A stretch of 64,000 nucleotides of DNA from Ginglymostoma cirratum (lineage: Eukaryota), in NCBI GenBank assembly GCA_024137785.1, contig JAHRHZ010000270.1, forward strand, positions 11,720,788-11,784,787, written 5' to 3'. Under the pieces are notes generated by a model that was given only the letters and a program-made list of their open reading frames with translations, was not told the DNA's origin and searched no databases. Shown piece after piece: positions 1 through 58,681 of this stretch (positions within the stretch are counted from its first letter, which is position 1; each line of letters starts with the position of its first letter). The translations under genes and the position numbers were made by a program.

Positions 1-198
1 CTGGATGAACACAGCAGGCCAAGCAGCATCATAGGAGCAGGAAAGCTGACATTTCGGGCCTAGACCCTTCTTCAGAAAAAGGGTCTAGGCCCGAAACATC
101 AGCTTTCCTACTCCTATGATGCTGCTTGGCCTGCTGTGTTCATCCAGCTCTACGCTTTGTTATCTCAGATTCTCCAGCATCTGCAGTTCCTACTATCT
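1..198. mobile_element. Short fold-back element made of Penelope-like (PLE) termini, cut by the window edge
   Basis: Positions 1-69 are the near-perfect reverse complement of 79-147. Hammerhead-like core on the minus strand at 45-77. Confidence 0.85.
45..77 (-). ncRNA. Minimal hammerhead ribozyme-like motif
   Basis: Minus strand: CUGAAGA-A-GGGU(CUAG)GCCC-GAAAUGUC-AGC. The core boxes are intact; the helix III palindrome ACGU has decayed to AUGU. Confidence 0.6.
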
Positions 199-9369: not shown

Positions 9370-11030
9370 AAGTTGTTGGTTGGTTCGCCGAGCTGACTGG
9401 TTTTCGTGCAAACGTTTCGTCTCCCTTCTAGGTAACATTGTCAGTGCTGTCTAACCTCCATTGAAGCACTGTTGTTCTGTTCCGCTCTGAATTTATATGG
9501 TCTGGTCTGTCACGGTGGGTAGTCCTGTTTCCAGTTTTGCACTGTAGCGGTATGTAGATGGGGTTTATTTCGACATGTTTGTTTATCGCACCGGTGGTTG
9601 AAAACCAGGCCACAACGAATTCTCACACTCATCTTTATCTTGCTTGTCCTAGTACTGTTACTTTGTGCCAGTTAGCTGATGTCCTTCCACGTCAGAGTGT
9701 ATTGAAACAAGGGAGAATTGGTCATGCCGTTTTGCTGTAAGTTGGTGTCTATGTATCCTGGTAGCGAGTTTCCTGTCCGTCTGTCCTATGTAGTGTTTCT
9801 CGCAGTTGCTGCATGGTATTTTATACATCACATTTGCTCATTGTGGGTATTGGGGTCTTTCGTTTTTGAGAGTAACTGGCGAAGTGTAGCTGTTGCTTTG
9901 TGTGCTATCATTATTCCAAGAGGTTATAGGAGTTTTGTAGTCAGTTCCGATGCATTTCTAATATAGGGTAGGGTAGCCAGTGTGTTGAGGCTTACAGTGT
10001 CTTCTTGATGTTGTTTATTTGCCAACAATCGGTGGACAAAGCTGTGAGGATACTCATTGTTCATAAAGACTCTGTATCGATGTTCCTCTTTGTTTTTGCA
10101 CAGTCCCAGGGTGTTCCAGTGTGTTATCGTTTGTTTACACAAAGCCTTGACACAGCTCAATTTGTGGATGCTGGAGTGGATACTGTTGTAATTCAGGATT
10201 CGGTCTGTATGTATAGTCTTTCTGTACACACTGATGAGGAATTCACCATTGCTCAATCGTTCCACTGTTATATGTCTAGAAATAGGGGCTGATTGTTGTT
10301 CTCTTCTTCCCTGGTGAACTTGATCCCAGTGAATATGCTGCTAATAAGGTGATATGTTTCTTCCAACTTTGCTTGTTTAATGATCACAAAAGTATCATCC
10401 ACGTACCTAATCCATAGTTTAGGCTGGGTCTGGGGAAGGGCTATGCATTCAAGTCTTTGCATAACAGCTTCTGCTATGAGACCCAAGAATGGTGAACCCA
10501 TGGATGTCCCATTAAATTTGTTCATATAACTGACTGTTGAAGACGAAATGCATGGTAAGGCATATGTCTGGTAATTTTAGTATGTTGTCCTTGTTAATAG
10601 TTTCATTGGAGTTTTGTGTTCTCAGGTTGTCTAATAATGTGGCCTGTGTCTCCATTGCTGGAGTCATGTTGATAGAGGTGAATAGTGCTGTAACATCGAA
10701 GGAGACCATCATTTCCTCCTTGTTGATTATTATGTTTCTGATGTTATCCAGGAATTCCTGTGCTGAGAATATGGACAAAGTTGATCCATTGGTGAGGTAT
10801 TTCAGTCTTTATTGTAACTCCTTGGCTAGCCTGTGTGTCATTGTGCCGAGCAGAGAAACTATGGGTTTGAGGGGGTTGTCCAGTTTGCGTACCTTTGGTA
10901 GTCTGTAGTAACGGGGGGGGAGCGCTGTTTGACCCCCCCAGTGAAAGACAAGCAGGACACTCACTGCCAGGATACATGAAAACCAACTTGCAGCAAAACG
11001 GCAAAACCAATTCTCTGTCTTGAACCATTC
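9370..11030 (-). mobile_element. Penelope-like retroelement (RT + GIY-YIG endonuclease), frameshifted and 5'-truncated, with an inverted 5' fragment
   Basis: Minus-strand ORF pieces SFDVTALFTSI, GTSMGSP, LWIRYVDDTFVII, SVYRKTIHTDRILNY and TLPYIRNASE, with a frameshifted …HYIGQT… endonuclease region near 9780-9830. Positions 10945-11015 are an inverted copy of 9715-9790. Confidence 0.9.
9408..9447 (-). ncRNA. Degenerate hammerhead ribozyme at the 3' end of the PLE
   Basis: Minus strand: GCA-CUGACAA-U-GUUACC(UAGAAG)GGAGAC-GAAACGUU-UGC. Helix I GCA/UGC pairs; the core G8 is mutated. Confidence 0.6.
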
Positions 11031-12329
11031 TCGGAACACTCTACTCAGAATAGAAGTGAGGATGTCTTCACCTTTAAAGTTATGAGAACAATCACATTTG
11101 ATAGCAGGGTATTGCCATGTAATTCACAAAGGTCAGCTCCAACTATTGACAAAGGCCTAACTATGGTCTTGTGTCATAATTCCTTACTTAGAGAACTCCA
11201 ACACGTCAAACAGATACCGCATTTCGGAATGTGTTGTTTAAGTTTGGCTGATATCCTGAGTCAATAATCACAGATGCTGCAGGCCCGACCTTCTATGACT
11301 AAGCCTGCTGAATGAACAACTGAAATTTTTTTTTTGTAAGGTAACAGGTACTATTAATTGTTGTCCTTTGAATAGTAATCTTCTTGGAAAGTTAGTTTAT
11401 CTTGAAAGTTAAAGTACTGGATAAATACTTCAGATATCTCTGACTTGATACAGGACTTACCGTGCCAAATAATAATCTGCAATTATTTCTGCACCAAGTC
11501 ATCCATTGCAGCTTGGTTAAAGCTGTTTCCAGTGTGAATCTTCAACTGGAAGTAATCCATGATTATCAATTTCTGGTTTTAAAATTAAAATCACAAGTGA
11601 CAGCATCTGGTAGGTATTGGCAAACTATCCACTACGACCACCTTTTGTAGTGTCTTATAAGTTACTTTCCGATAAAGTTTTTTAAGTCTTAACACTATTC
11701 TTTGAAATATCTAAGGCACTGTGTACAACTTTGATTAGATCCCCACACAGTCCTTATCCTGTGGCAAGGTGTCCTATAAATTAGGCCCGACAAAGTATCA
11801 TTTTATCAGTTCGTAACACCACACCATGATCATTGCAGCTATGTAGGGAAATGTTTGGATTTCATAATGGTCTTGACTCAATATTTCAAACATTTCTCTG
11901 AAACCAACCGTCACAAAATCTTCTGCAAAATATTTGCAGCCATTCAGTCAGCTCATGTATCTTTTGTTGGAAAATTTATGGCAATCTCTTATTCCCAACA
12001 CATCCAGCAGTGTTGTCCTTCAGGTTTATAGAATCATGTCAGATAATATCATGGCAGATATATATGCATTGAGACACATTTTCCAAAATCCATCTTAGAC
12101 ATCAAGAAGCATGAAGACTTGAGACTGAACTAAAGATGTGGCTACAGTTTTAATAATTGGTCAAGTATGATGGTCTCACTTGATAGTGTTTAGGATTTAA
12201 GTAGAAATGTAGCATATCATTCTGGTTAGGTATAGCTGCCATAAAACTGATCCATGAAACTGATATTATTCCAGGAACAATGATCTTTTGTCTGACCAGG
12301 CCATTAAAGTTTTCCTCCAGCTTAGCCTT

Positions 12330-22099: not shown

Positions 22100-22725
22100 A
22101 AAAGGCACGTGTTTATACGTTGCCTTTCACAAACATGGGCTGTTCCAAAAGCCTTACAGTTAAATGTATACATTTCAAAGTATAGTTAAAAACTAAAAGA
22201 ACTGTGGATGCCGTAAATCAGAAACAAAAATAGAAATCGCTGGAAAAGCTCAGCAGGTCTAGCAGCGTCTGCGGAGAGAAATCAGAATTAACCGTTTCCC
22301 GAAACATTAACTCTGATTTCTCTCCGCAGATGCTGCCAGACCTGCTGAGCTTTTCCAGCAATTTCTATTTTTGTTTCAAAATGCAGTCAGTTGTATGATA
22401 GGAAGCTGTGATGAGTTTAGGTAGCAATGCCATCATAGCAGATCATTTGAATATGATACAAGCACTGGTCAAGGTACCAAAAGAAAATGCCCGGGCATTC
22501 TTCAAGAACTACAATGGGATCTTTTAACTCCACAGAGCTAGCAGATGAACCATGCTTTAATATCTCATCTAATATCTCATCTAAAAAGCCACATTTCCAA
22601 CACTGATACACTACTCTGTCCTGGACTAAAGTATCAGTCTGGATTATGTGTTCAATTCCTGGAGTTGAACTTTAATTCACAATATTTTAATTCAGAGGCA
22701 ACCAGCAAATGCTGAGTCAAGCTAA
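22100..22725 (-). mobile_element. Deu-domain SINE interrupted by a fold-back PLE-terminal element
   Basis: Reverse complement of the 5148 SINE lies on both sides of 22188-22378. Confidence 0.55.
22188..22378. mobile_element. Short fold-back PLE-terminal element (second subfamily)
   Basis: ~22221-22292 (gaaacaaaaatagaaatcgctggaaaagctcagcaggtct…) is inverted at ~22305-22377. The centre keeps CCCGAAAC but lacks the CUGANGA box. Confidence 0.85.
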
Positions 22726-28387: not shown

Positions 28388-30544
28388 CTGTGTAAAACAA
28401 CAACAGCAAGATTTAGACAGAATAGAAAAAGAAACTACCCAGATCTGGAACTTCCTCCTACGTGAAACCAATCCTGAGATTGAGTTTCAAAATAATCACC
28501 ACAGAAAGCCATCTCCTACACTCAGGATGAACGACATTTGGATTGCAGACACCCAATGCTGGAGAGGAGAAGTAAACCTGATCTGCAGCCACAGTGGTAA
28601 ACTTAACTCAAATCGAAATATGCATTGTTTTGTCAAAGGCATTCAACTCTATGCATCTGGTCTTCTTTCATCATTAAGTTGACAATGATAAGAATAATAT
28701 TTTTTTCCTAGAATTCACAGGTGGATCCCAACATTTGTGGCAGGACTTATGGCCTATGGATTTTCCAGCCCTAGTTTTCTCATTTGAATATAAGAGCAGC
28801 CAAACCACTCATCAGGAAACATCTGAAAGTCAAACAGTTAACACAACTGGCTCTACGGTCCATTTATAATTGATTTTGCCTTACTGTAGCCCCACACTAG
28901 TTATGTTTAACCAATGTAGCAGTCTCTGTGTTGCTTTGTCTTAATTAATTGAACACAAAACTTCCAACCTAACGATCCTGATTTTGAAGATATTCAGAAA
29001 TTAATCCATTGAAACTATGAGAAGTTATGTATATTCAACTATTGAACCCATTAGAAACTTTGGATATTGGTCTGTTGAATCTATTAGAAGCCAATGGAAA
29101 TTGGTCAATGAAATCAATTTCTTTGCTTGCGTTGGCTTTGCCAGTCTCTAAATTGGTCATTCCATTGAAAGGAATGAACTGCACTTAATAATTTATCCAC
29201 AGTCAATACTATATTATAGTACGATACTGTGTACAGGCAAACTATCTGCTGAAGTTCACCGTCTAAGCTAGCACATAAAGACACTCGATTGAGGTACTGA
29301 AGATCTAACTACCAGTGAAACCAACATGAAGCACCATCTTCAGGAAAGGTAGTGAGAATGGAAAGGGAGTTCTTCAATGAAACCTTAATAACCTTAAGTA
29401 CCATTGTGCCTAAAACAACCACTTTACAGCATAGTCAATGCAGAGCTTAGCAATCGATGATCCATCAGTGCTGTAAAGCATAAACATACAGGAGCACAGA
29501 GAGTTATGCTTAAAATTTATGAATTAAAATTTTAATAGAAACCTGAATCTCATGCTGAGAACTCCAAAGACACAATCAACACAGGAGAACAGGAATTAAA
29601 AGAAAAGAAAAAAAACTTTCATAACTCCTTAGTACCTAATGATGCAGAAAATGTAATGAATAGTCCCCTTTGTGAATTTATTACTTTAATTACATCACAT
29701 TCAATGGCCATTCTATTGCTGCTTTAAATTTTAGATTTCAATTTTGTATTACAATATGAAATCTTTTTATCATAATAATCGTCAGACTTCAGAACCCAAG
29801 TTATATTGGCAAATTTCATTTGAAGTATTAAGTTGCTTAGAAATACAGAGGCAATTGAGAATTTGAGCGTTCTGATTGTTAAACAGAGAAACCCAACCAT
29901 AATAACAATCAGTTATTGCTCAAATGAGTAGTAACTAATTAGAGGTTAATCCTCCTATCATGTTTTCAGATCAGTCTGATCAAGGATGAATACAATAGTG
30001 GCCTAATGTGTATTCATATCAAGGCTAGGCATGGCCAGGTGCAGGAGATGAGTTTTCATGAGATACGGTGGGCTATCAGCAGTAACAGAATTGTATTCGA
30101 TCACTATCTGTAGCCTCATAGTCCAGCACATTCCTCATTCTATCTTTACTAGCAACACAGGGATATTACCAGGGATGCACATTGATCTAAATATTAACTA
30201 GAAGACAATCAACTCAATGAATGACTTTACTTGGTCTGATCTGCTAGTCTTCCAGGGCAAAGAGCTGTTTTAGACTGAGTATTGCAGACTGGTATATTCC
30301 AAGGTAAAAGACTATTTGCTGAGAAAAGGACCAAAGCATGGGACAACTGCTGTAAAGACTAAATGGGAAAGCCATTGACTAAAGCCTTTCCACCATAGTA
30401 TAGCAAGAGACTGAGAACAATGTAAAGTACTTTAGGTTGTTTATACCAAAGAAGGTTTGACAGAAACTATAAATGAACATTGTAAGTTTAAACTTCCATG
30501 TCAAGGCTATTGAGGAACCCAATGTACAATATTGAAAGAAACTT

Positions 30545-30952
30545 AGAGATGGCAAGAACTGCAGGTGCCAGAGTCAGAATCGATACAGTGCAGAGCTGGA
30601 GGAGCACAGCAGGTCAGGCAGCATCAGAGGAGCAGGAGAGTCGATGTTTCAGGCCTAGACCCTTCATGAGGGGTAAGGGATGTGGAAAATAAATAGAGGG
30701 GAGAGGGGTGGGGCTGGGGGAAGGTAGGTGGGATGGCAATGGGTGAATACAGTTAGGGGTTAGTGGGGATTGGTCAGTGGGAAGGGTGAGGCAGATAGGT
30801 AGGGAAGGAAATAGATAGGTAGTGTCAGGTCAAGGAAGCAGGGATGAGAGGGAAAGTTGGACATGGGCTGAGGCCAGGGGTGGGGAGATTTTGAAACTGA
30901 TGAATTCTCTGTTTAGGCCATCAGGCTGTAGGCTCCTGAGGCGGAATATGAA
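30545..30952 (-). mobile_element. PLE 3' fragment (GIY-YIG C-terminus plus terminal repeat)
   Basis: Minus-strand peptide IFRLRSLQPDGLNREFISFKIS is homologous to 54945-55005. The terminus is homologous to the fold-back arms. Confidence 0.8.
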
Positions 30953-31149
30953 ACTTAACTGCACTTGTTTAATGTCAAATTGAACTACTTTTTTATTGAA
31001 CTTCTGCAAATTTTTCGAATAAAGTATGTTTTTGAAAAAATGATTCCCATCAATATAAGGAACCCACATGGTTTAAAAAAGCAGTGTAGAAGAGCTTGAA
31101 AGGATGTACCAAAATTTTAGATGCAATCTGGCAAAGGTATTACACAGGT

Positions 31150-35604: not shown

Positions 35605-36470
35605 AGAGTCATTGAGCCATAGAGTGATACAGCATGGAAACAGACTCTTTGGTCCAACTAGTCCATGCCAACAACATTCCCAAATAAACTAGTCCCACTT
35701 GCCCATGTTCAGCCCATATCTCTCCAAACCTTGCCTATTCATGTACTTATCCAAATGTCTTTTAAATGTTGTAAGTGTACCTGCATCCTTCACTTCTTCT
35801 GCCAGTTCATTTCACACACAAACCATTCTCTGTATAAAAATGTTACCCCTCATGTTCTTTTTAAAATTTTCTTCTCTCACCTATGGCCCCTGGTTTTGAA
35901 CTCTCCCACCCTATGGAAAAGACCCTTGTTATTTACCTTATCTATGCTCCTCATGATTTTGTAAACATTTATAAGATCACCCTTCAACCTCCAAAGATCC
36001 AGTAAAAAATGTCCCATCCTATCCAGCCTATTTTTATGACTCAACTCTCCATTCCTGGCAACTTCCTGGTAAATCTGTTCTGAACCCTCTCCAGCTTGAT
36101 AATATTCTTCCCATAACTGGGCTTCTAGAACTGCACACTGTATTCCAGAAGAGGCCTCACCAACATCCTGTACAATCTCAACATGACATCCCAACTCCTA
36201 TACTCAAAGGTTTGAGCAATGAAGGCAAGTATGCTAAAAGCCTTCTTAACCATCCTGTCTACCTGATCCCCTAGGTGTATTTGCTCTACCACACTACTCG
36301 GGGAAGTGCCATTAATAGCATAAGTCCTGCTCTTGTTTGTTTTGCCAAAATGCAATACCTCACATTTATCCAAATTAAACTCCATCTTTCGTTCCTCAGT
36401 CCATTGACACAATTGATCAAGACCCCTTCGTAATCTTAGATAACCTTCTTCACTGTCCACTATACTACCA
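35605..36470 (-). mobile_element. Younger CR1 LINE 3' part nested in an older plus-strand CR1 (~35260-36740)
   Basis: ORF 36125-36538 (MEFNLDKCEVLHFG…LYRMLVRPLLEYSVQF) and ORF 35877 (LKGDLINVYKIMR). The older copy resumes after 36470 (aaagggcatttgataaaatgccac). Confidence 0.85.
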
Positions 36471-37827
36471 ATTTGATGAGAGTAATGTGGTTGATCAAGA
36501 ATACAGGGACTCCCAAAGGGCATTTGATAAAATGCCACACAGCAGGCTTGTCAATAAAGTTGAAGCTTACCAAATCAAAAGGAGCAATGACAGCAGGGAT
36601 ATGGAATTGGCCATAGGATAGAAAACAGTGAGTAGTGGTGAATAGTTACTTTCAGACTGAAGGGTGGCTCTTCCAGAATCCTGAACTCCTGAATGAATGC
36701 ATAACAGGCTCCTTTTGTCCTATAGCAATTCTATGATTCTACTTCAGTTTTGAGGACCCAGAAAGGATCATTTAAAGAAGCAGACTCAGTAGGGTCAGTT
36801 AACACTTTTAATTTTAATGCACCACAGATGTAAGTAGGTGGAAAGAAATTTCGGATGGTCTATCTGTAGCTTAGAAGAAAAGGAGGAAAGAAAGTTAACA
36901 AGGGAATTGGCTGTAGTAGTACAGATGATAGAACGAATGGTAGAAATTCAATGCTCGAAGTGAGAGAGGGATGTTGAGCTACCGAAGAGCACAAGAAAGA
37001 GATTTTGGAACAGTATTCAATTGTTTCTTGTGTTCTTTTAACCAACTTGAGCAAATGAGAATGAAGGTTCATTGATGAATGACTCTTTGTATGAAAGTGA
37101 AAAATTATGCTTCAAGAAGACAACCTCAGCCATGGAGAAGTGAATGTAACATTTGTCTTCATGTCAGATATTTAACCACAAATATGAAAAACTATCAAAG
37201 GAGTCAAAGATTAGATCACTATTCAGATTTATGACAGATATGGTGAACCTAACTTTTAAAAATCATAAGAAACTATTTTAAGGATCCCAGGATGAAAGGC
37301 AGGAGGAAGATACAGCCATAATGACCCAGCTTTGTACAATTAAAGAAAAACAGTTGTCAATGCCAAAAGTGATCAATCAGAAGGAGGTAAATGCATGTAG
37401 CAAGAAAAAAGTCATCAAGGTTGCATGGTGACAGAGAGAAGTAACTGATATTAAGAAGAAATTGAGTAGGAAAGAAGGCAATGCCGTGGAAAGCCACTGT
37501 ATAGAATGACAGAGTTACAGGATGAGAAATAACCACTTGGGCATGACATCAGACTGTACTAGAACCTGTATAGTTGTACCTCAATTAAGATCTAATACTT
37601 CAAAAGATGAAATGGGAATCTGGGAAAATTAAATATATTTTTTGTTATATACATAATATTTAGTTTACCAAACTTCTTAAAATTAGTGTTAACAGCTTTT
37701 TATTTTCTATTTCCTTTGTCCATCTATTCCAGTCCCATTTACAAACTGCTGAAACACAATAAAGTTGCTGCATAGACTGAGAACAATAATGTGAATCAAT
37801 GTTGGGCAGTGCACCCCCTATGGGTCA

Positions 37828-42371: not shown

Positions 42372-42555
42372 GGTATTAAAACAGAAAATGTTGGAAATAC
42401 TTAGCGGGTCTGGCAGCATCTGAAACAGAAACAGAGCTAACGTTTCAGAACTTTGAGCTTTCATCAGAAGCTGAAATGTTAACTCTGTTTCTCGCTCCAC
42501 AAATGCTGCGTGGCTTGCTAAGTGTTTCCAACATCTCTGGTACTTTGTTTTTGTA
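42372..42555. mobile_element. Old fold-back PLE-terminal element
   Basis: 42385-42448 is imperfectly inverted at 42471-42540. The minus strand at 42439-42468 reads CUGAUGA-AAGCUCAAAGUUCU-GAAACGUU. Confidence 0.75.
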
Positions 42556-45500
42556 TACCGGTTTCTGTATTACTGTTTGCAAATTGTCGACCTTAGGGAA
42601 ATAAATTGAGACCCCTGCCATGTAATGGGAGGTAGGTGTGGACACGGTATCCTTTGAAACTTCATAGCCCACTGACAGGTTCCAAAATGAAACAAATTAA
42701 CTCTGAATGATGACCTTTGAGAATCCCTCAGCTTGAAAATAAATAAGAAAACACGTTAGACACCCAACCATGTCGTAAGATTCCCAGCAAAACTGCTGGC
42801 TGTCCCAAACAAAGTGAGAAGTTTTTTTTAACGAAGCTTTAAACGGCGAGAGCGGTTTTGCATTGTTAAACAGCTCACCACAGTGCCCTTCACGCGAGAA
42901 GTAGATCAATAAATCAGCAGAGACTTCAGATAGAAGAGCAATGAGCGTTTAATTTCAAATAATGTGTCCGCCTAAACAGGCACCCTAGAAGCAAACGCAC
43001 TCACTGTTCTTGTTTTTGTGATATACCAATGGAGCGGACCTGCTGATCTGTTTCAGTGGAGGGTATATGACTGCAATAACAGCATCATGACTCTCTCTGT
43101 TGGACAGACCTTGCAGGGGAGAAATGCGGGAAAAACATGGGACTGGTGGCAACCGTGGTCTACTAGATGTGCTTAAAGCAAAGTCAGTGGGGACCAGAAT
43201 GATAATTCCTCCTTCACTACTCTCCGACCGGCCTTCTCTACTACATAAGCTTGTTTTTTTTTTCGTTTCTGTTTACGGTTTTTTTTTAACCTGCCTTCTC
43301 TTGAGCCTACGACTGTCGCTGGAGCCTGATCTGAGCTCACTATTATTGCTGATTCCGAACGGTAGAAGTTAGTGGCGGCGAAGCGCCGGGAATATCAGTG
43401 AATTGGTCGAGGTTTTATTCAAACGGATTACTTTTGCAGATGAACCGTGAAATTTGGCTACAAACATGTCAGGTTTTTATTAACACCGAAGGCAATCGGT
43501 GACTATTAGTTAATTATTAGATTAATTAGTAAAGACAGCTTTTCTAAAGTCGTGACAGATTCATTGAAATTAATAACTTAAATGAAGCTGATAGGAAATG
43601 TGAGGGAAGTCACAGCTATTGCGATGTTGTAATGATTTGTCAATGTAATTGGAATTCATTCTAGCGCCTGTGTTTAAACGCTCACAACACTCCATTGTAA
43701 CTAGGAACCATTACTGTTTAGAAGGCGTTTCGTTGTTCGTTTGCCCAACTTTCAACCGGGACATGATGTTCAAATAGGACGTGCAATTGAACTAACGCTT
43801 CACCAATTGTAAACTAATAATAAAAAAAAGAAAATGTACAAAAACACTTCGCGGTATAGTAGACATTGCAACCTGGCGTTAATAAGAACAGAAACTGACG
43901 CCTTCACCATGTGTGATGAACTATCCGGACTCTGATCTGCGATTGTAGTTTGGACCCAACGTAATTTATCATGAATTCCAAAAACGACTGGTGTAGTTTT
44001 CGACAAAATTTCGTTTATTTTGTCTAAAATTTAGCCATTTTATGACCAAAACATATTGCATTTTTGAACCCAAACTCCCAGCTGTCGAATGTTTGCTGTA
44101 TCCATTAATTTTAAACCTACGCGGTACTGAGGAAGGTTATTCCGGTTTGTTTTGGTGTTGGAAAAGAACGTCTCCTCGTGTGGTGGTTTACACGCCTGAA
44201 ATGTGGCGACCGGCGACTGAATCAGGCCTGCTTTCCTTAAACTGTGCTTGACCACGGTGAAGCAAATCTAAACACAGCCTGGAACACAACTATTTAGGGC
44301 TGAGTCCTCATCTCTAAGAGCAGGAACACGGAGAATCCCCGGGAATTGCATGGAACGTCTCCAAGTGTGTTGAGAAAAAAGGTTTCACTAAAGCCAATAA
44401 AAACTTTGTACATGTTCCCTAGTTCGACCGCTAGCAAAGTATCAAACAAAAGTTCATTTCCTGCCTGTGTTTGATACATATAACCGACACGGGTAATAAC
44501 GCCCCTCTTGTACCCCAGCCTCTATGTTCATACACATCTCATCGCTATTTTAAATCCCACGGTTACAATCCAATGAAAAGGGTTTCATCTATCCAAATCT
44601 CTCAGTCCCTCGCAGCTCCTATAATAATCGTATGGCAAACACTATATGATGATTATACTTCCATTTTTAAACGTCAGTTCTGACCGTTTTATTTTGTAAC
44701 ACAACTTGTGAGGCAGTTAATTTCCACAGGAATTAAGTCACCTTTATGTGTAAAGTGGACGATTATCCGTTACAAGATGCGTCGTCACAGATGTATTTGA
44801 AATATGAGTTGAATTTATCTACTTAAACTGTGACAGCCAGTGTGCAAACGAATTAGGAAGGGCCTTGTTTAGATTGACCCCTCTCGGTTGTGAATCTGTA
44901 TGAGCGTTTCCCTTTTGTAGATGCAAATATGCAGCGTTTAGCTGGTTGGTGTTCACGCGGGGCTGGGTGCCGCCTATATACATGTGTAAAGATATTTACA
45001 TTTGACACAGTTTCATATTAGTGCAGTTGGAACCCACTACAGAGTCCAGATAAAAATCTGTGTATATGTGTGACGTTTCAGCTTAGCATAGCCCGGTAGG
45101 TACACGGCTCTGAAACTTTTTTTTTTGCCCTTGTCCGTACTCTGTGTGGATACTGGTTGGTATAAAGGCATGACAGCGGTCAGGGCTAATATTTGAAGTA
45201 CGGGGGTAGAGTGTGCCAAGTGCCCAGACACAAAACAGAAAACTCTAGCCGCAACAAATAAAACCTGACAGACACCCATGCTGAAACAGTCACTGGTTTT
45301 CTGAGCGTTTATCTATGTACCTAGCAGGTGTTTACTGCCTGTACTGGAAGGAGCCACATACATTAAAGGATTATTTTGATTTCTTATAACCTAAGGATGT
45401 TTTCTGCATTATGCGTGCCTTTTATTAGCTGGGGTTTTGGTGAATCGTTTTCTGCTATTCTCTGATATCTGATTCTCTTAATTTAAGGATTACCTTGTTG

Positions 45501-45952
45501 TCATATCCTTTCTGATGGATTACCTGCAGGAAAGGCTTTGTCTGGGATATGTCGCTCTTGGATTATTTCTGCTCCTCATATCTGCAATGTTAGGTTTGAA
45601 TTACTACCGGTTCTCTTGCCTCTAACACTATTTCTCATTATCACTCACTTGGCTCTAAGATTGTTTCCAATATTACCATGAGTCTCTATCACAGAGTCCC
45701 ATGATCAATGTTTTCCAGTTTACACTGTCATTCTTGATTTATTTAGGCTTTTGAAACCTACTCGGAATTTTGGCTTTGAAACTCAACTTATTGACTCTAC
45801 GAGTTTACATTCGCTTATTATGTCCAATGCCATTTTATCTAAGTTAGGTTTTAAAGTCTATGCTGTGGATTTGTAATGGGTCAGTTTGGGCCCCGTTGTT
45901 ATACCAGACAGTGACTTTGGTCTGATATTTTCCTTTTTTTCCTGATTCTTAC

Positions 45953-46118
45953 CTGCCCAGAATCTTGCTGACGCAGCCGTGGCTCACCCGCAGCTGCCTG
46001 GAGATGTCACAGGGTCTCACCCCTTGATGGGCCAGCTCGACAATCCGCTGCCGGACAACATCGGGGAGAGGGCGACCATTGACAAAGACCCCTCCGAGCT
46101 GATTCACTCCGCCGTGCC
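45953..46118 (-). CDS. pax5: Pax5 exon 2, paired domain N-terminal part ([55 protein letters not shown])
   Basis: 166 bp. Polypyrimidine tract plus TACAG acceptor and AG|GTAAG donor. Classical Pax2/5/8 paired-box sequence. Confidence 0.98.
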
Positions 46119-48650
46119 CTGTATACAACATACAAAACAAGAAAGAGAGAGAAAAGAAACACTGCAGGCTCCACAGTAGAATTCCAATACCGAGTCTGCA
46201 TTTCCGAGCTCGGGTCTATTGGCAACGCGCAGGGCCCAAGCAGAAACATGGGCAGGAGAAGGAGTGACCTCCCCCCATCCCCCACCCCTACCAGCAGCAA
46301 ACCCCCCTCCACCCCCGCCCCCGCCCCCACCCCCACCCCCGCTCCGCCACCCCTGCCCTAAGTAGCTGTCTACTTGCATGGAAAGGTGGGGGAGGGGGAG
46401 ACTTGGGGAGGGAAGATACTGCAGGCACATCGGAGATTGAGGAGACCAGGAGGATGAGGGCACAAGGCAGTGTGTTTAAAAGAGGGGAACAGTTTCCAAA
46501 CGTGGCCCCAGTATTAGGCTGCACAGGAACACAGGGTGCCCGCAGCTTCCTGGTACACTCTTCATATCAGCAGATCACAGCCACGCACTCTCCGCCAGCA
46601 ACTGGACCTCCGGCTAGGAACAAGGATTTTATACCCCTGTGTATTGTGAGATGTCTATAATATGGACCCACACTAGCTTCAGTTAACAGCTTTATTTTTT
46701 AAAAAAGCAGAATGATTGTTGTTCTGAATTACAGACACATATGAGTCGTTCACTGAAAGCGAAAGTGATCCACTGAATTCGGAACAGAAAATGAGCCCCG
46801 TTCGGTGACACTTCAGCTTCCTGTGTGAAAAAAAGTGGTCGTTCGGAGATCTGTGGACGGATTTTAGTCGCCTTCACAACCTTGTAGGACCAAGACATGT
46901 TCCTAGTGAGTAATCGGCTGCAGCACAGCAAAGGGTTCCATTCTCAAACCGAATCTAACAGAATTGTTAGAGGTTTGCTAGACTTTTTGGATCAGTGTGT
47001 GGGTTATCTGTCCCGATGTGATGATACATTTCTACAAGTCTTTCAAGAAAACCGTTGGGAAAGTGAATGGGAAATCCTAACACGAAATTAGAGCGATTTT
47101 TTTTTCTCTCTAACAGCTCCAAATTGCATTCAAAGCAAATGGCATCTACAATCAAATAAAATAATACCCTTCCCTGACTACGACAAGTATTTGGTGAATG
47201 TCAATCGGTTACACAATTTTACTGTTGCAATACCTGGGAAGGAAAAATCGGCCTACTTTAATCTTTTTTTATGAGGCTGTTTCAGCCAGAGGAGACGAAA
47301 GTTAAAACGGGGACGGTCTAATACCTGCGATAGAGGGGTAATCGGCGCCGCGGGCTACTTAGCCTCTTCCAATGCCCTTTTTCCTGGTTTCAGCAATAAG
47401 TGAAATTAACGTTTTGCTAATGAGTCAGAAATGATACACTACTTCCTTTTTTTTTGTAAAGAATTGGCGTCTAATTTCACACCGTGGAGCAAGAAGATCG
47501 CGACTGTAAGGTCATTTGGTATTTTTTAAACATATACGTGCCGTCAGATTTCACGGGGGATCCGTTTAAATTTCTAAGTTTTATTTTGAGATTTTGGTCC
47601 ACTTTCCAAAACACGAGCCATGGTCATTTACTTTGGCAAATAAGTTTACGTCAAATTCAAAGTAGGAGAGGATAAATTCGGAATAGAATTGTAACAATCG
47701 CCCGACTTTTGAACGGTTTTCCTAAAATCGATATTGTTTGATTCGATCTGGAAGTTTGTGTGCGCGCTTTACTCCACATCACTATATAGCAACAATCTCA
47801 AATCGATTTTTTTTGGAGACGGCAGAAAAACTCCACCCTGTTTCATACTAAATAAACCTGGTCAACGAGGTGCGATTCCTCAACTGTGTTTAGTTCCCTC
47901 TACAATATGATTAGTTCGAGTTGATAAAGCATCTGTTTACAAGCAGTAGGTATAATAACTCTTAACACACCGTGATAGAATGTGTCATTTCATATAACAC
48001 CGACCAAATGGACAAATCCCAGCCAACTCTGTCAAGCGAAACTAACGTGCTGGAGATATTCTCCGTGGTCCACAACCTTCAGAAAGGACTTTCACTGCTC
48101 CATATCAACTTAATCTTCGCCGGTTAAGCACAAAAGTAATTGCAATCGAAAAGAGCAAAATTAAACAGTTACACGCCGACCTTATTTAATCTGTAGGTTA
48201 ATGCTCGCTAGCAAATTACTGGGAACTATTTTGTTTTGTTCACGAATTTTAATGAATCATCTATTGATGCGGCTGACTTTTACTAACGATGCTTGTGACA
48301 GAAAGCAACTATATCACATGCCCTTTGGTAGTAAAAGTACAAGCCTTTAAGATAGCATTGCAATTGTGCTGTCGCTTTCGATTTAACTGTGAGAATTCAG
48401 AAATCTTTGCATTAACTCGTTTTCTTTTATAATTCGGGAAAAACCGGAGGTGATATTAAAATGAACCTTGCACGTGTGACTCGATCGTGCCTTTCTGTTA
48501 AAAAAAATGAGTCCCTTTCAAAGATTTCGCATTGCTCCGGGTCTAGGAGTCACTGATCACCAGCTTCTGGATCCGGGTCTCCCAGCACTCCTTACACACT
48601 ATCGCTCACTAGGAACCGCCAGACAAGCAGGGAAGGAGCTGCCTACTTAC

Positions 48651-52149: not shown

Positions 52150-52830
52150 ATAGTCATCATCATAGAGATATACAGCACAGAAACAAACCCTTCGGTCCAA
52201 CTTGTCTATGCCGCGCTGAATATCCGAAATTAATCTCGTCCCATTTGGCCCATATCATTCTAAATCTTTCCTATTCATGTGCACATCCAGGAGCCTTTTA
52301 AATGATGTAATCGTAACAGACTCCACCACTTCTTCTAGCAGCTCCTTCCATACACACACGGCCTTCTACGTTAAAAAGAAGCCCCAGGGGTCCCTTTTAA
52401 ATCTTTCACCTCTCACCTCAGTCCTATGCCCTCTAGTTTTGGACTCCCCTACCGTTGGTTAAAAAAAAACTTGGCTATTCACCCTATCCATGCCCCTCAT
52501 GTTTTTATAAGCCTCTATAAGGTTATCCGTCAGATTCCACGCTCCAAGGAAAAAGCCCCAGCCTATTCAGGGTCTCCCTGTAGCTCAAACCCACCAATTC
52601 CGGCAACATCCTTATAAATCTTTTCTGAACCCTTTCATTTTAACAACATCTTTCTTCTAGCAGGGAGACCAGGTTTGCACGCAGTATTCTAAAAGTGGCC
52701 TAACCAATGTCCTACACAGCCACAACATGAGATCCCAACTTCTACACTCAATAGACTGACCAATAGAGGCAAGTGCACCAAACGCCTTCTTCACCACCCT
52801 GTTTACCTGACTCCACTTTCAAGGAACTAT
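52150..52830 (-). mobile_element. CR1 LINE 3' part
   Basis: Colinear with and similar to 35605-36270. Confidence 0.85.
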
Positions 52831-53548
52831 TCTTGTCTTTTGATGGCTGGTCTTTCTTCAGCAGTCCTGAAGAGTGACTGTGCTGTGTCAAGCTGTAAAT
52901 CAGGTGTTCCACGACCTGTTTGATCTAATTGACGGGGAAGCCAAATGTTGCTTTAGTTGTACTTCTTATTTGTATCTCTCAATTGTAGGACATTACTTTA
53001 TTGATCATCTCTTCCGGGGGCATCCTTGCAACGGTGCAAGTTTAGAAGGCTCTGAAAATTCCGAGACATCCTACTGGTCGAACTCAAACAGTGCAGAGGA
53101 GATCGACTGTTTATAAGGGCAAGGACGCCCAAAACAATGTTTTTCTATCATCCTTGACCTTTTGACATGTTGGAGAACCTTTGCACAAAAGCAAGAAAGT
53201 CTGAAATGCCAGGTGAAAACTAATTATTTCATTCGGTATTAATTTAAACAATGCACATGAACCTTGATTGTGTTTCCCCTCACGCCCACTATCTTGTCGT
53301 GAATACACTCCCAAACCGCAGAATAATCACTAACCAGTAAACCGAATCAACTAGAAGCTAACTTACCATTTCCGATGATTAAGCATTTGGACAATGATGG
53401 AGAGAGAGAGAGAATTTGCGCGACGTCATGTTAAAAAAATGGACTGTTCCACATTTCACTGGCCCAACCTAGCCTCAACAGGAGAGAAACTTACTTCCCA
53501 GCTTACTTGTTTAGTTTTTAGTACTGGCCTACTACAACATCTGGCTCC

Positions 53549-55355
53549 AGAGTCAATAGATGCGAAGCTGGAAAAGCACAGCAGCTCAGACGGCATACGA
53601 GGAGCAGGAAAGTCAACGTTTCCGATGGAAACCCTTCTACAGGGCTGGGGAGGGGGTGGGGTTGGGGCAAGGATAGGTGGGATGGTGATAGGTGGATGCA
53701 GGTAGGAGTTTATTATGATTGGTCTGTTGGATGGGTTGAGTGGATTGGTGAGTAGGAAGGTGGGCAGGTTAGGTCATGTCAGGGGTGGGGCGGTTGGACA
53801 TGGTATAAGGCTGGAGGTGAAGGGATTTTGAAGCTGGTGAAGTCAACATTGAGGCCAGTGAGCTGTAAGCTCCCAAGATGAAATATCAGGTGTTCCTCCA
53901 GTTTACATTTGGCCTCACTCTAACAGTGGAGGAGATGAAGGATGGACATGTCACCAGGAGAGTGGGAGGGGGAGTTAAAATGGATGGCAATTGGAAAGTC
54001 GCGTTGGTTGGTGCATGCAGAGCACAGATACTCTGCGAACCAGTCCCCAAGTCTGCATTTGTTCTCCCCAATATAGAGGAGACCACATCAAGAGCAACGG
54101 ATACAATAGATCAGGTTGAATGAAGTGCAGGGGTAACTCTGTTGGATCTGGAAGGATTGTTTGGGGCCTTGATTGGAGGTGAGAGGGGTGGTGTAGGGGC
54201 AGGTATTGCACCTCTTGCAGGGAAACGTACCGGGTGTGGTGGAGAAGTTGGTGTGCAATGTAGAGCTGACATGGGAGTCACAGAATGAATGGTCCCTGTG
54301 GAAAGCAGACAGGAGTGTGGAAGGAAATATCTTTTAAATGGTGGGATCTGATTGTAGATGGTGGAAATGTCAGAGGTTGATGTATTGGATTCAGACTCTA
54401 GTCCTCACATCCCACCCCACCAACTTCCAAATCAAACATATGATCCTCCAACATTTCTGCCGCCTACAATCAGACCCCACCACCCAAAAGATATTTCCTT
54501 CCCCACCTCTGTCTGCTTTCTGCAGGGATCATTCATTCCTCAACTCCTGTGTCAGCTCTACACTCCCCATCAACTTCTCCACCACACCTGGTACCTTTCC
54601 CTGCAACAGTAAGAGGTGCAACAGCTGCCCCTAACATTTCCCCTTTCAACTCCGTCCAAGGCCCCAAACAATCCTTCCAGATTCAGCAGTTTCACCTGCA
54701 CTTCATCCAACCTGATCTATCGTATCCGTTTCTCCGGCCGTGATCTCCTCTATATCGGGGAGACCAACACAGACTCAGGGACCGTATCGCGGAACACCTG
54801 CACCCTGCATGCACTAACCATCCCAACCTTCCGGTTGCCATCCATTTTAATACCCCTATCACTCCCCTGGTGATATGTCCATCCTAGGCCTCCTCCACTG
54901 TCAGAGTGAGGTTAAATGTAAACTGACAGAACAACACCTGATACTTCACCTTGAGAGCTTACAGCCCAAAGGCCTCAATATTGACTTCACCAGCTTCAAA
55001 ATCTCTCCAACCTCAGCCTTATCCCATGTCCAGCCCTTTCCCTCCTCCTCTCCTCCCTGACCTGGCCTCATTGTCCATCTTCCTATTCACCTTTCCGCTC
55101 TACCCTTCCCACTGACTAATTACAATAACCCCCAACCTGCATCCACCTATCACTATCCTTCCTACCCTTCCACCAGCCTCCACTCCCCTCCCTCTATTTA
55201 CTTCTAGGCTCCCCTCCCCCTCCCCAGAAGAGAGGAAGGTTTTCTACCCCAAATGTTGACTGACCTGCTCCTCGTATGCTGTCTGACTTGCTGTGCTTTT
55301 CCAGCTTCGCACCTATTGATTCTGGCTTCCAGCATCTGCAGTCCTTACTGCTTCC
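53549..55355. mobile_element. ~1.8 kb head-to-head inverted pair of PLE 3' halves (GIY-YIG endonuclease remnants)
   Basis: The plus arm encodes LVLTSHP…PGTFPCNSKRCNSCP…FTCTSSNLIYRI…LYIGET…EQHLILHLESLQPKGLNIDF. The minus arm (53549-~54400) is its diverged reverse complement, and the pair is flanked by a 15-bp direct repeat. Confidence 0.88.
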
Positions 55356-55476
55356 ACAACATCTGACCCCGCCAAACACAATCAGAGAAATTCTGCAAAG
55401 CTCAGTTTATAGAAGAATCCCTAATTACCAGGGATTCATACAATGGAACCCAAAGCCAACAAGAGGATCCTGGTAG

Positions 55477-55671
55477 AGATAACAAAGTGAGGAGCTAGAG
55501 GAATACAGCAGGCCAGGCAGCATCAGAGGAGCAGGAAAGTTAACCTTACGGGCCTGAACAATTCTGAAGAAGGGTCCCGACCCGAACGTTGCCTTTCCTG
55601 CCCCGCTGATGCTGCCTGGCCTGCTGTGTTCATCCAGCTCCACAATACGTTATCTCTGCCTCCAGATCTCT
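55477..55671. mobile_element. Short fold-back PLE-terminal element with TSD
   Basis: Inverted arms; plus-strand CUGAAGA-A-GGGU(CCCG)ACCC-GAACGUU at 55564-55590; flanks GATCCTGGTAG (55466-55476) and GATCCTAGTAG (55672-55682). Confidence 0.85.
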
Positions 55672-56242
55672 GATCCTAGTAGGGATGTTGTTTTTGAAGA
55701 CTAGCTAGAAATGTTAGCAAAAGGGAGCGTTAGCGAGATATTCAGGTGTACACGGAAATCTGCGGGATGGCATTTAAGCCGGAAAACAACTTGGGCTTTG
55801 TGGCAAGACGGTGTTGGAGGACAGTCGCGTTGAATGATTGGTAAGAAGGGAGCAGGCAGAAAGAACAGCCAGGGCTGTCGGTATGGAACCATTTTCGTCC
55901 CTAAATATATGCGCTAGAAGCCTTGGATTAGATTTGTTCCAGGAAGGTCTGCAGGGATCACGTGTTAAGTTATCTGCTTTAGAGTAGTTAGTTTTTTTTA
56001 ACATTCTCATGACAAGGCAGGAATTTATTGCTGCCCCATAACAACAGAATGGCTCTCAGTCACTTCAGAGAACAATTTAGAGTCAAACATTGTGATGTGG
56101 CGACAGGATCATGTTATGCAGCCCAGGGCTTCTGGCTCCCTTTTCAAGAATATTAGCAATCCAGTTGGGTTTTACGACATACTGATACGCCTTTTGATCA
56201 CCTTTCTTTTTTTAAAATTTGAAACTGAAATCAAATACTAAA

Positions 56243-56380
56243 CTTCGGAGGAAAGGTCACCGGACCCGAAACGTTAACTCTGTTTTTTCCATAACAGATG
56301 CTGCCAGACCTGCTGAGTTTTTCCAGAAACTTCTGTTTTTGTTCCTGATTTACAGCATCTGCAGTTCTTTCGGTTTTTAC
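56243..56380 (+). mobile_element. Single PLE terminus starting at a hammerhead-like motif
   Basis: CGGAGGA-AA-GGUC(ACCG)GACC-C-GAAACGUU at 56246-56275, followed by an arm of the 22188 subfamily. Confidence 0.75.
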
Positions 56381-56476
56381 GAAACTTCTTATTATCCCTC
56401 GATTCCTGGTCCCGCCCTCTGCCACATGGTTCATCCGTTAAGCCTTACTGTCCAATCTGAATTTATGGCAATTCTT

Positions 56477-56881
56477 CAGAGATAGCAAGAACTGCAGATG
56501 CTGGGGTCAGAGATAACACGTTGTGGAGCTGGAGGAACACAGCAGGCCAGGCAGCATATTAGGAGCAGGAAAGTTAACGTGAGAGATAATACGAACTGCA
56601 GATGCTGGAGAATCCGAGATAACGAGGTGTAGAGCTGGACGAACATAGCAGGCCAAGGAACACCATAGGAGCAGGAAAGCTTGACGTTTCGGGCCTAGAC
56701 CCTTTCCTATGATGCTGCTTGGCCTGCTGTGTTCATCCAGTTCTACACCTTGTTATCTAGGAAAGTTAATGTTTCGGGTCGGGACCCTTCTTCAGAATCG
56801 TTCAGACCCGAAAGGTTAACTTTCCAGCTCCTCTGACGCTGCCTGGCCTGTTGTGTTCCTCCAGCTCCAAACTGTGTTGCC
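56477..56881. mobile_element. Fold-back PLE-terminal element containing a nested second one (56581-56758)
   Basis: Outer TSD TATGGCAATTCTT (56464-56476) / TACGGCAATTCTT (56882-56894). Inner TSD AGGAAAGTTAACGT (56567-56580) / AGGAAAGTTAATGT (56759-56772). Confidence 0.88.
56766..56797 (-). ncRNA. Minimal hammerhead ribozyme-like motif
   Basis: Minus strand: UU-CUGAAGA-A-GGGU(CCCG)ACCC-GAAACAUU-AA. Confidence 0.6.
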
Positions 56882-57296
56882 TACGGCAATTCTTGACGTT
56901 CATGATCACAGGTTGTATTTTTACTGCGTTTAAACAACAATGTTTCATCATTGTTTGAGTCAGCAAAAGGTACAATTTAAATGAGAAAAACAAGCCAATG
57001 AGGGGCGTCACACCGACCTGTGTTTCCAAAGGTGCCGCATTAACTCGAGAAAGAGTTATTTTGTTTTTGGCATAATGTTCTGTCCCAACAAAGGGATAGA
57101 ACAATTTCAGTCATCTTCCAGTACAACATGGCTCCACCGACGGCTTAGTGCGCGTACGCCGCCAGCTGAGAAATGAAATTAGACGAAGCGAAGGTAACAA
57201 TTTATGCCATCGCTTTGGGCATTGGCTGGGAAGTAATGTCTGTTAAAGGATAACTCGGGAGTCACAGGGACTACCGACTCCGCTAAAGCAAGTCAA

Positions 57297-57560
57297 AAGC
57301 AAAACACTGCAGACGCTGGACATCTGAAATGAAAACTGGAAATGATGGAAACATTCAGTAGGTTTGTAGCAGCCGATGAGTCAAAAACCGAGTTAATGTT
57401 TGTGGTCCATAACCTTTAATCAAAGTTAAAGGTTTTCAGCAAGTGAAAGGAGGTGGGGAGGGAAAGGTAAGGTCTATGATAGAGTGGAGGGTGAGAGAGA
57501 TTAAAAGACAGAAGGCTGATGTCGCTATATCAAAGGGACTGGAAATGGGACAAGTGGGAA
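57297..57560 (-). mobile_element. Old PLE 3' terminal fragment
   Basis: 'aaaacactgcagacgctggacatctgaaat…gagttaatgttt' arm followed by a purine-rich tract, as at 30545 and 53549. Confidence 0.55.
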
Positions 57561-58165
57561 AAAAACTTGAGGCTGGATGGCAGAATCACGTACACCTGTT
57601 CATCTCTCCACACTAGCTGCCGGATCTCCACCCTGTTACGTGCTATGTCGGATTACTGGGATCGATGGCACGGAACCAAATCATGCTGGTGTTTATTCTC
57701 CCGTCTTTTCTCATCTACATGCATCACGGTGACCACCTATTCCCGTGTCCATCATTTGCTTGTCCATTTTCCCCTTACACGCACCCATGTTTTTCGCTTC
57801 ACCTACTACCGGCGGTACCGAGTTCACTATTGTCATTATTTCAGGTAAAATGTTTAATTTGAATTCCCTATTGGATTTCTCAGTCACTGTCTTATATCAC
57901 CGGCCTCCAGTTATGCTGTCCCTCACGCCAAGAAACATTTCCTCTGTATCCTCTCTAGCAAATATTTTAGATTTTTTAAAAACCTCTATTAGGTCACCCT
58001 ATTGCTTTTAAGAGGGAAGACACCCACCCTTTTCTTTGATGTGTAAACTCACAGATTTCTACTAAAGAGGCCCCCAAGTAAATTAGGCACATACAGCTCA
58101 ATAGCAAACTACATTTTAAAAGGGCACGCGGCCAATTTAGGACACCACGGAACTTTACAAATTTA

Positions 58166-58281
58166 TCCGAGATAACAAGCATGGGGCTGGATGAACATAG
58201 CAGGTCAAGCAGCATCATAGGAGCAGGAAAACTTGACGTTTCGGGCCTAAACCCGTCATCATTTCTGATGAAGGGTTTAGG
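58166..58281. mobile_element. Fold-back PLE-terminal element cut by an assembly gap
   Basis: Left arm as in 1-69. The centre 'cctaaacccgtcatca-tttc-tgatgaagggtttagg' is palindromic and starts a plus-strand CUGAUGA box at 58265. Confidence 0.8.
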
Positions 58282-58681
58282 NNNNNNNNNNNNNNNNNNN
58301 NNNNNNNNNNNNNNNNNNNNNNNNNNNNNNNNNNNNNNNNNNNNNNNNNNNNNNNNNNNNNNNNNNNNNNNNNNNNNNNNNNNNNNNNNNNNNNNNNNNN
58401 NNNNNNNNNNNNNNNNNNNNNNNNNNNNNNNNNNNNNNNNNNNNNNNNNNNNNNNNNNNNNNNNNNNNNNNNNNNNNNNNNNNNNNNNNNNNNNNNNNNN
58501 NNNNNNNNNNNNNNNNNNNNNNNNNNNNNNNNNNNNNNNNNNNNNNNNNNNNNNNNNNNNNNNNNNNNNNNNNNNNNNNNNNNNNNNNNNNNNNNNNNNN
58601 NNNNNNNNNNNNNNNNNNNNNNNNNNNNNNNNNNNNNNNNNNNNNNNNNNNNNNNNNNNNNNNNNNNNNNNNNNNNNNNNN
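58282..58681. other. Assembly gap (400 N)
   Basis: Run of N. Confidence 1.

Follow-up and report, generated by a model that had tools for sequence, protein, structure and literature searches.

Results

Head-to-head pairs of Penelope-like 3' ends in a shark genome

The 64-kb stretch of Ginglymostoma cirratum DNA analysed here (the window) holds a genuine feature that belongs to a known kind: it illustrates cleanly, for a shark, something that Penelope-like elements (PLEs) are known to produce but that is poorly explained. Each of seven fold-backs is a head-to-head pair of PLE 3' ends (Table 1), and we consider it probable that these are short insertion products of autonomous PLEs, the hairpins having mostly been made at insertion. 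Two of them, E55 and E56, descend from one palindrome.

The initial annotation, made from the sequence alone, had listed seven inverted structures of about 200 bp, and all seven were found at about the positions it gave. The two compared with shuffled sequences are far more stable (z = -12.5 for 55477-55671 and z = -20 for 1-198). Most inserts have no ORF between the arms and end at or inside the hammerhead, giving hairpins of 180-215 bp. The size given at first is nevertheless too narrow, as the same architecture occurs at 1.8 kb and at ~1.4 kb, alongside single-arm inserts, and arm length ranges from ~54 nt to 0.9 kb. A census of PLE-terminus inserts in the window, combining self-BLAST with a profile search, adds four inserts with these termini (E53, E30, S56 and S57) to the seven. 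The ~1.4-kb case (~9660-11075) belongs to a second PLE lineage that shows the same head-to-head inversion; a target-site duplication (TSD) was looked for around this element, and no convincing one was found.

Table 1. PLE-derived inserts and junctions in the window, with the tails and hammerhead cores of their arms.
Feature	Coordinates	Strand	Description	Tail	Hammerhead core
E55	55466..55682		Head-to-head PLE terminus pair 55477-55671; short arm left; TSDs 55466-55476 and 55672-55682	16 nt, right arm	Minus one A, right arm
E56	56464..56894		Palindrome 56477-56881 in opposite orientation to E55, split by N56; TSDs 56464-56476 and 56882-56894	34 nt, left arm	Intact, 56772-56795(-)
N56	56567..56772		Younger fold-back 56581-56758 nested in E56; own junction; TSD 14 bp, 1 mismatch	36 nt, left arm	No CUGANGA
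Shared E55/E56 junction, copy 1	55549..55568	-	Centre motif		
Shared E55/E56 junction, copy 2	56791..56810	+	Centre motif		
E1	1..198		Young family-A fold-back; own junction; arms 96% identical; left end clipped by window edge	33 nt, right arm	Intact, 52-75(-)
E58	58166..58281		Family-A fold-back; own junction; right arm enters N gap		Runs into assembly gap
E22	22188..22378		Family-B fold-back; arms 94% identical; weak TSD	33 nt, left arm	No CUGANGA
E42	42372..42562		Old family-B fold-back; arms 82% identical; weak TSD; approximate right boundary		42443-42467(-), stem II decayed
E53	53534..55365		Head-to-head PLE insertion 53544-55355, 1.8 kb; arms ~0.85-0.9 kb, extending into broken GIY-YIG-like coding sequence; perfect 10-bp TSD	34 nt, right arm only	
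E30	30538..30957	-	Single-arm 5'-truncated family-A PLE end; no inversion; 8-bp TSD	32 nt	
S56	56236..56388	+	Single-arm family-B terminus; 5' start at hammerhead 5' edge; no inversion; TSD 11 bp, 1 mismatch	32 nt	
S57	57290..57560	-	Old single-arm family-B terminus; pyrimidine-rich sequence upstream; approximate boundaries		
Second PLE lineage	~9660-11075	-	More diverged; broken RT and GIY-YIG-like frames; inverted 3' end 10943-11015		

Two terminus families and many junctions

The seven had been taken as one family. The arm tree instead separates two terminus families (support 100/99), A (E1, E30, E53, E55, E56, N56 and E58) and B (E22, E42 and S56), with S57 placed in family B by profile. 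The seven also have six different junctions; with E53 included, eight fold-backs have seven, a count that covers one 64-kb window and in which eight distinct elements leave room for several masters genome-wide. Since even the youngest subfamily (E1, N56 and E58; tree support 90/93, compared arm pairs 88-100% identical) has three junctions, the hairpins appear mostly to form anew at insertion.

Among 17 visible arm 5' ends (E55 and E56 counted once), 5 lie within ~5 nt upstream of the hammerhead core, 8 lie inside the hammerhead or shortly past it, and 4 lie far upstream. In the full-length context, as back-translated from whale-shark peptides (P0001, P0003 and P0008), CCATTTC directly precedes the core, and we take this to be a match to the Initiator consensus. 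We infer that the arm 5' ends are those of run-off cDNAs, reaching from reverse transcriptase (RT) start sites in the 5' pseudo-LTR (pLTR) to the 5' end of the RNA; alternatively, they could reflect a splice acceptor in that position or a stall there caused by structure. In D. virilis, according to the available text of PMC4209133, an intron end maps to the 5' end of hammerhead helix I.

Target-site duplications and tail asymmetry

TSDs of 8-14 bp flank six of the eight inserts tested (lengths of 8, 10, 11, 11, 13 and 14; p ≤ 0.009), a test from which E1 (window edge) and E58 (assembly gap) were omitted. The three clear TSDs of 11-14 bp noted at the outset stand up to comparison with 1500 position pairs drawn at random. 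E55 has one of 11 bp with 1 mismatch (55466/55672, p ~0.009), E56 has one of 13 bp with 1 mismatch (56464/56882, p ~0.0007), and in N56 the match is perfect over 11 bases or extends to 14 with 1 mismatch (56567/56759, 0/1500); these p-values are optimistic because the boundaries were placed by eye. The remaining two, E22 and E42, are weak (p ~0.03 each, and p = 0.59 for E42 with an alternative boundary). The six with clear TSDs include the single-arm inserts E30 and S56.

The two ends of a fold-back differ in their tails. Seven long arms carry tails of 32-36 nt, that of E55 measures 16 nt, and four measured partner arms have 0-7 nt. This asymmetry is found within E22, N56 and E53 (32-36 nt on one arm, 0-7 nt on the other) and in E56, where the long arm has a 34-nt tail and the short arm finishes at the short terminus. 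The E55 tail was probably shortened to 16 nt through a loss between two ATCT repeats.

E55 and E56 share one ancestral palindrome

The centre motif of these two fold-backs occurs exactly twice in the window (Table 1), with no further match when up to 3 mismatches are allowed and with 0.02 occurrences expected even at 3 mismatches. When the nested N56 is left out, E55 and E56 are identical at 168 of 194 columns (87%), and the alignment is continuous through the junction. Comparison of all four arms, at columns in which each has a base, gives 55 constant columns, 21 private or mixed ones, 4 that group by arm type and 0 that group by copy; the informative sites (4/4) thus join short with short and long with long arms, three of them within ~15 nt of the junction. 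In both elements the tail sits on the arm with the whole hammerhead. The arm tree leaves the four E55/E56 arms unresolved. Segmental duplication was considered and rejected because the flanks align no better than chance: of 300 random pairs, 243 and 121 scored as high. A conversion tract was sought in the E55/E56 alignment and none was seen; mismatches are evenly spread (p = 0.49), in a comparison of low power.

Identity that spans the junction, four of four arm-type sites, different TSDs and unrelated flanks together establish that E55 and E56 share one ancestral palindrome. The initial annotation had proposed that the palindrome itself was copied, and for this pair the shared junction and the 4/4 sites bear it out; the other five have private junctions, and the proposal does not extend to them. 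That the elements move as a unit is likewise borne out in part: the same junction stands at separate sites with distinct TSDs, in two of the eight fold-backs, but these are only 0.8 kb apart. Given this distance, a dispersed, genome-wide master is no better a fit than local re-insertion or gene conversion. PLE enzymes are favoured as the copying agent, since each copy finishes at the two standard termini and has fresh TSDs of its own.

Hammerhead remnants

Using the descriptor for minimal type I hammerheads from PMC4209133, we found an intact CUGANGA..GAAA core in three of the seven fold-backs, E1 (1), E42 (42372) and E56 (56477); in the others it is broken, cut by the gap or absent (Table 1). 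The motif matches six times in the window against 3.7 expected and so is not enriched by itself. Stem II and the palindromic 15.2/16.2 positions are present together with the core in E1 and E56 and are decayed in the others. An Rfam scan of the window gave eight matches at E ≤ 1, all below the gathering score (seven microRNA hairpins and one RNase MRP), and none to the hammerhead models. The description of the elements as hammerhead-bearing is therefore not sustained.

Folding predictions put the cost of opening the E1 core at 13.6 kcal/mol in the palindrome against 3.2 in a solo arm, and that of the E56 core, without the nested insert, at 12.1 against 2.3 kcal/mol; the fold-back is predicted to add little in E42 (7.0 vs 5.8) and nothing in E55 (4.0 vs 4.0). 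As the antisense arm is transcribed first on either strand, the core and the cleavage site are expected to be base-paired. The predicted cleavage site is the start of no arm. We regard the hammerhead as a passenger: most copies lack it or have a broken one, and in those that keep it the folding models pair it with the antisense arm.

Coding sequence linked to the termini

The same termini run on into PLE-like coding sequence. The arms of E53 enter broken frames that carry C..C-LLYIGE, a GIY-YIG-like motif, for which the Atlas lead is a Chordata cluster with 23% PF01541 (score 0.91). Junction-spanning translation searches returned nine proteins, namely eight Rhincodon typus gene models and one unrelated protein; yields were 1 of 403 candidates, 0 of 2, 4 in the representative library and, in the search seeded with whale-shark sequence, 6 of 17 including the query itself. 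The representative-library match P0004, a repetitive protein without relation to these termini, was discarded. In the whale-shark model P0001, an inverted family-A terminus is joined to a DKG...GVAMG RT-like stretch with an Atlas score of 0.88-0.90, which we treat as a lead only; DKG is a named PLE motif in the available text of PMC8557442.

Inside the window, no RT linked to these termini was found. Pfam gave no match on seven E53 frames and only sub-cutoff matches on nine further proteins, and a Pfam search of 148 of the 153 window frames of at least 72 aa placed only the PAX exon above cutoff; no fragment scanned matched an RT or GIY-YIG model. P0001 gave no alignment with the RT frame of the 9.7-kb element and nothing significant against PDB sequences. 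The PLE protein assignment, made through motifs and weak searches, is putative.

Three of the eight whale-shark models (P0002, P0005 and P0007) read through both arms, and their junction peptides differ from one another and from that of E55/E56, which is in none of the matches from the junction-spanning peptide searches. Judged from these translations, fold-backs of this terminus family exist in another genome with other junctions, although as copy-number evidence the whale-shark junctions are weak owing to the tiny sample, the possibly different species and the possibly spliced gene models. Scans of bacterial and archaeal genomes gave 0 matches to the junction and 0 to the arm motif, as expected for a shark repeat. 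The predicted host genes P0001-P0003 and P0005-P0009 are annotation artefacts in that they partly consist of translated PLE termini. Fold-back PLE ends of this sort are probably frequent in skate and ray assemblies.

Genomic neighbourhood

The window includes a paired-box exon of a Pax2/5/8-type gene at 45952-46119(-), whose best PDB match is Pax5, and a cluster of PLE inserts lies 7-12 kb upstream of it on the exon's strand. Seven of the 12 PLE-terminus inserts, S57 included, fall within 53500-58300 (~5 kb). The CpG observed/expected ratio is 0.56-0.85 in most 2-kb bins of 40000-64000 and 0.1-0.5 in the first 40 kb, and it falls to 0.3-0.4 across 52-56 kb. The high ratio over 40000-64000 suggests a broad hypomethylated domain, which may favour PLE insertion.

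Within this cluster, the target duplication of N56 (56567-56772) spans the predicted hammerhead cleavage region of E56, which recalls PLE insertion into its own pLTR. A 400-base assembly gap (58282-58681) starts within the second arm of E58, and this suggests that fold-back hairpins break assemblies. Among other repeats in the window are two 650-bp copies that are 70% identical (35618-36266 and 52161-52810). The frame 36128-36550(-), which overlaps the first of these and has no Pfam match, is presumably a CR1/L2-type LINE fragment. One inverted and two direct repeat pairs were also seen (12401-12437/13733-13769; 33891-33981/34152-34245; 5195-5273/20251-20329).

Discussion

A proposed route from PLE RNA to a hairpin

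The course of events that we favour would begin with a staggered cut by a PLE protein, leaving the 8-14 bp TSDs that are observed. Both target ends would then prime RT inside the PLE RNA, at either of two sites ~33 nt apart, and one arm would come out tailed and the other untailed, which is the asymmetry seen. For the anole element, in vitro work has shown initiation at two sites, with both strands extended (PMC11167929, available text), and the same may apply to these termini. The cDNAs would stop early; the observed stops lie mostly at or inside the hammerhead, which is probably the 5' edge of the pLTR. The two cDNAs would next be joined head-to-head with little or no overlap, and priming at one end only would give a single arm. 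Finally, a hairpin would have been re-copied at least once, leaving E55 and E56, whose common descent is observed, at separate target sites; PLE-mediated re-copying, most simply as a local event, would account for this. With one RT start site at each end, such a hairpin could serve as a template again. In its available text, PMC3846280 prefers self-priming on an antisense template over two-ended priming, and the two are not separated by the present data.

Relation to known Penelope-like systems

The layout itself has precedents. The typical insert described in the available text of PMC3846280 consists of adjacent inverted pLTRs with an optional 31-bp tail on one of them and a TSD of 9-10 bp; head-to-head is the most frequent arrangement there, and inverted-pLTR structures are already shown to move cargo in trans. 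A general scheme with a 30-40 bp tail and an inverted 5'-truncated copy is given in PMC8557442, and PMC8969392 counts inverted pLTRs and short 3' extensions among the known peculiarities of individual copies. From these sources, as far as their available text goes, a head-to-head pair with tail and TSD is already known as an architecture. The initial annotation was right that the window inserts are Penelope-like termini, that these retain remnants of minimal hammerheads, and that the TSDs vary.

The closest likeness is to the endonuclease-containing PLEs Pen2/Pen2a of Adineta vaga (PMC3846280; scheme in PMC8557442), which share the head-to-head inverted 3' termini, the optional one-end tail of 30-40 bp, TSDs of ~8-14 bp, strong 5' truncation and a terminus with a minimal hammerhead; compared with the available descriptions, the window inserts differ in being mostly ORF-less hairpins of 180-215 bp, one of which is present in two copies. 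In Poseidon_Ac (PAc) of Anolis carolinensis, RT starts at two internal sites that delimit the tail, cutting and extension affect both target strands, and insertion has no need of the hammerhead (PMC11167929). Two start sites and two-strand extension predict a pair of one tailed and one untailed arm, as in the window; PAc belongs to another family, and the available text reports neither head-to-head products nor re-copying of palindromes. In Schistosoma mansoni, minimal hammerheads on opposite strands ~100-700 bp apart are credited to truncated PLEs (PMC4209133), but junctions, TSDs and copy relationships are not described in the text available. Very short 5'-truncated inserts are normal for PLEs, with a median of 128 bp in Chlamydomonas (PMC9977147). 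Non-coding PLE partners are also known, among them the non-autonomous Chlamys elements MRC1 and Chlamys-N4 (PMC8557442, PMC9977147), though in the available text these are described as head-to-tail and not as palindromic units. The available text of the whale-shark genome paper (PMC8455134) names Penelope once, in a list.

Alternative explanations

A short, non-coding insert with terminal inverted arms and TSDs looks like a MITE. If they were true MITEs, mobilised by a DNA transposase through recognition of the inverted ends, neither TSDs of variable length (8, 10, 11, 11, 13 and 14) nor ends made asymmetric by a tail would be expected, and on these two grounds we conclude that the fold-backs are not MITEs; identical termini also extend into PLE-like coding sequence, and the transposase reading is the least credible of those considered. 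Hardly more credible is a retrozyme-like replicon, i.e., a hairpin or circular RNA in which the hammerhead processes a transposition intermediate. Minimal cores in three of the seven would speak for it, as would the origin of animal retrozymes in PLE pLTRs (10.64898/2026.07.22.740005, available text). The likeness to animal non-LTR retrozymes goes further, these being short, non-coding, pLTR-related, equipped with a type I hammerhead and thought to depend on PLE proteins (PMC7229834; 10.64898/2026.07.22.740005). In the available text of the same sources, retrozymes are direct tandem repeats that require two motifs and self-cleave to monomers and circles, whereas the window elements are inverted, lack tandem copies, have at most one core per strand or none, and carry the core, where present, behind its own antisense copy, where it would be masked. 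The initial comparison with retrozymes thus fails on architecture. In addition, the core is predicted to be sequestered in E1 and E56, the predicted cleavage site begins no arm, and the anole PLE inserts in vitro without need for cleavage (PMC11167929, available text). The fold-backs are probably not retrozymes, and on the folding models a retrozyme-like way of working is also unlikely.

The harder question is how E55 and E56 came to share a centre. The model of the initial annotation, narrowed to the E55/E56 type, is a master palindrome spread genome-wide by PLE RT and endonuclease, with priming in each arm. The asymmetric junction common to both copies, the arm-type grouping at all four sites, the canonical termini with new TSDs at both, and the even spread of mismatches without a conversion tract (p = 0.49) all fit such a master. 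It has to be set against this that n = 2, the sole junction-sharing pair lying 0.8 kb apart, and that the E55/E56 junction is found in 0 of 3 whale-shark fold-backs; its peptide is absent from the protein collections searched, which hold very few shark repeat translations. We think this model unlikely, while giving it real weight. Slightly less weight goes to gene conversion or another DNA-templated local copying, in which two hairpins of the same subfamily inserted independently, inverted and 0.8 kb apart, and one soon overwrote the centre of the other. Such an event would explain why they are so close; a 5-kb stretch contains 6 of the 11 inserts counted (post hoc p ~0.005, the nested insert not being independent), so that independent neighbouring inserts are likely here, and homologous sequence on either side of the junction is available in any hairpin of the same family. 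The tract would, on the other hand, have to cover at least ~100 nt, beginning at the hammerhead of the short arm and reaching the distal part of the long arm, and a low-divergence tract was not seen; as E55 and E56 are 13% divergent against 2 of 24 TSD positions, a conversion would be about as old as the insertions themselves.

Significance

Short PLE insertion products with hairpins mostly formed at insertion remain our preferred reading. The literature search, whose scope excluded Repbase, Dfam, subscription papers and supplements, found no PLE-derived palindrome amplified as a unit and did not find these shark termini. Because the hairpins combine sub-threshold microRNA-precursor scores with the look of MITEs, they are an annotation trap.

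It is conceivable, though we doubt it, that a PLE scar has here become a replicating, MITE-shaped retroelement, the first strand being primed in one arm on a read-through RNA and the second in the other arm on the cDNA. If so, the hairpin could be cut out precisely with neither promoter nor poly(A) nor functional ribozyme, a dispersed family in this shark lineage would be marked by the E55/E56 junction, and in PLE-rich genomes many hairpin 'MITEs' and predicted microRNAs would turn out to be scars that were retro-copied. Should the junction prove dispersed and abundant, it would represent a route to non-autonomous retroelements for which the literature search gave no description, and would supply the in vitro PLE system with a minimal, two-ended substrate. 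The junctions, tail asymmetry and TSDs are a natural record of the insertion mechanism, and when read from thousands of such scars they could separate two-ended priming from self-priming.
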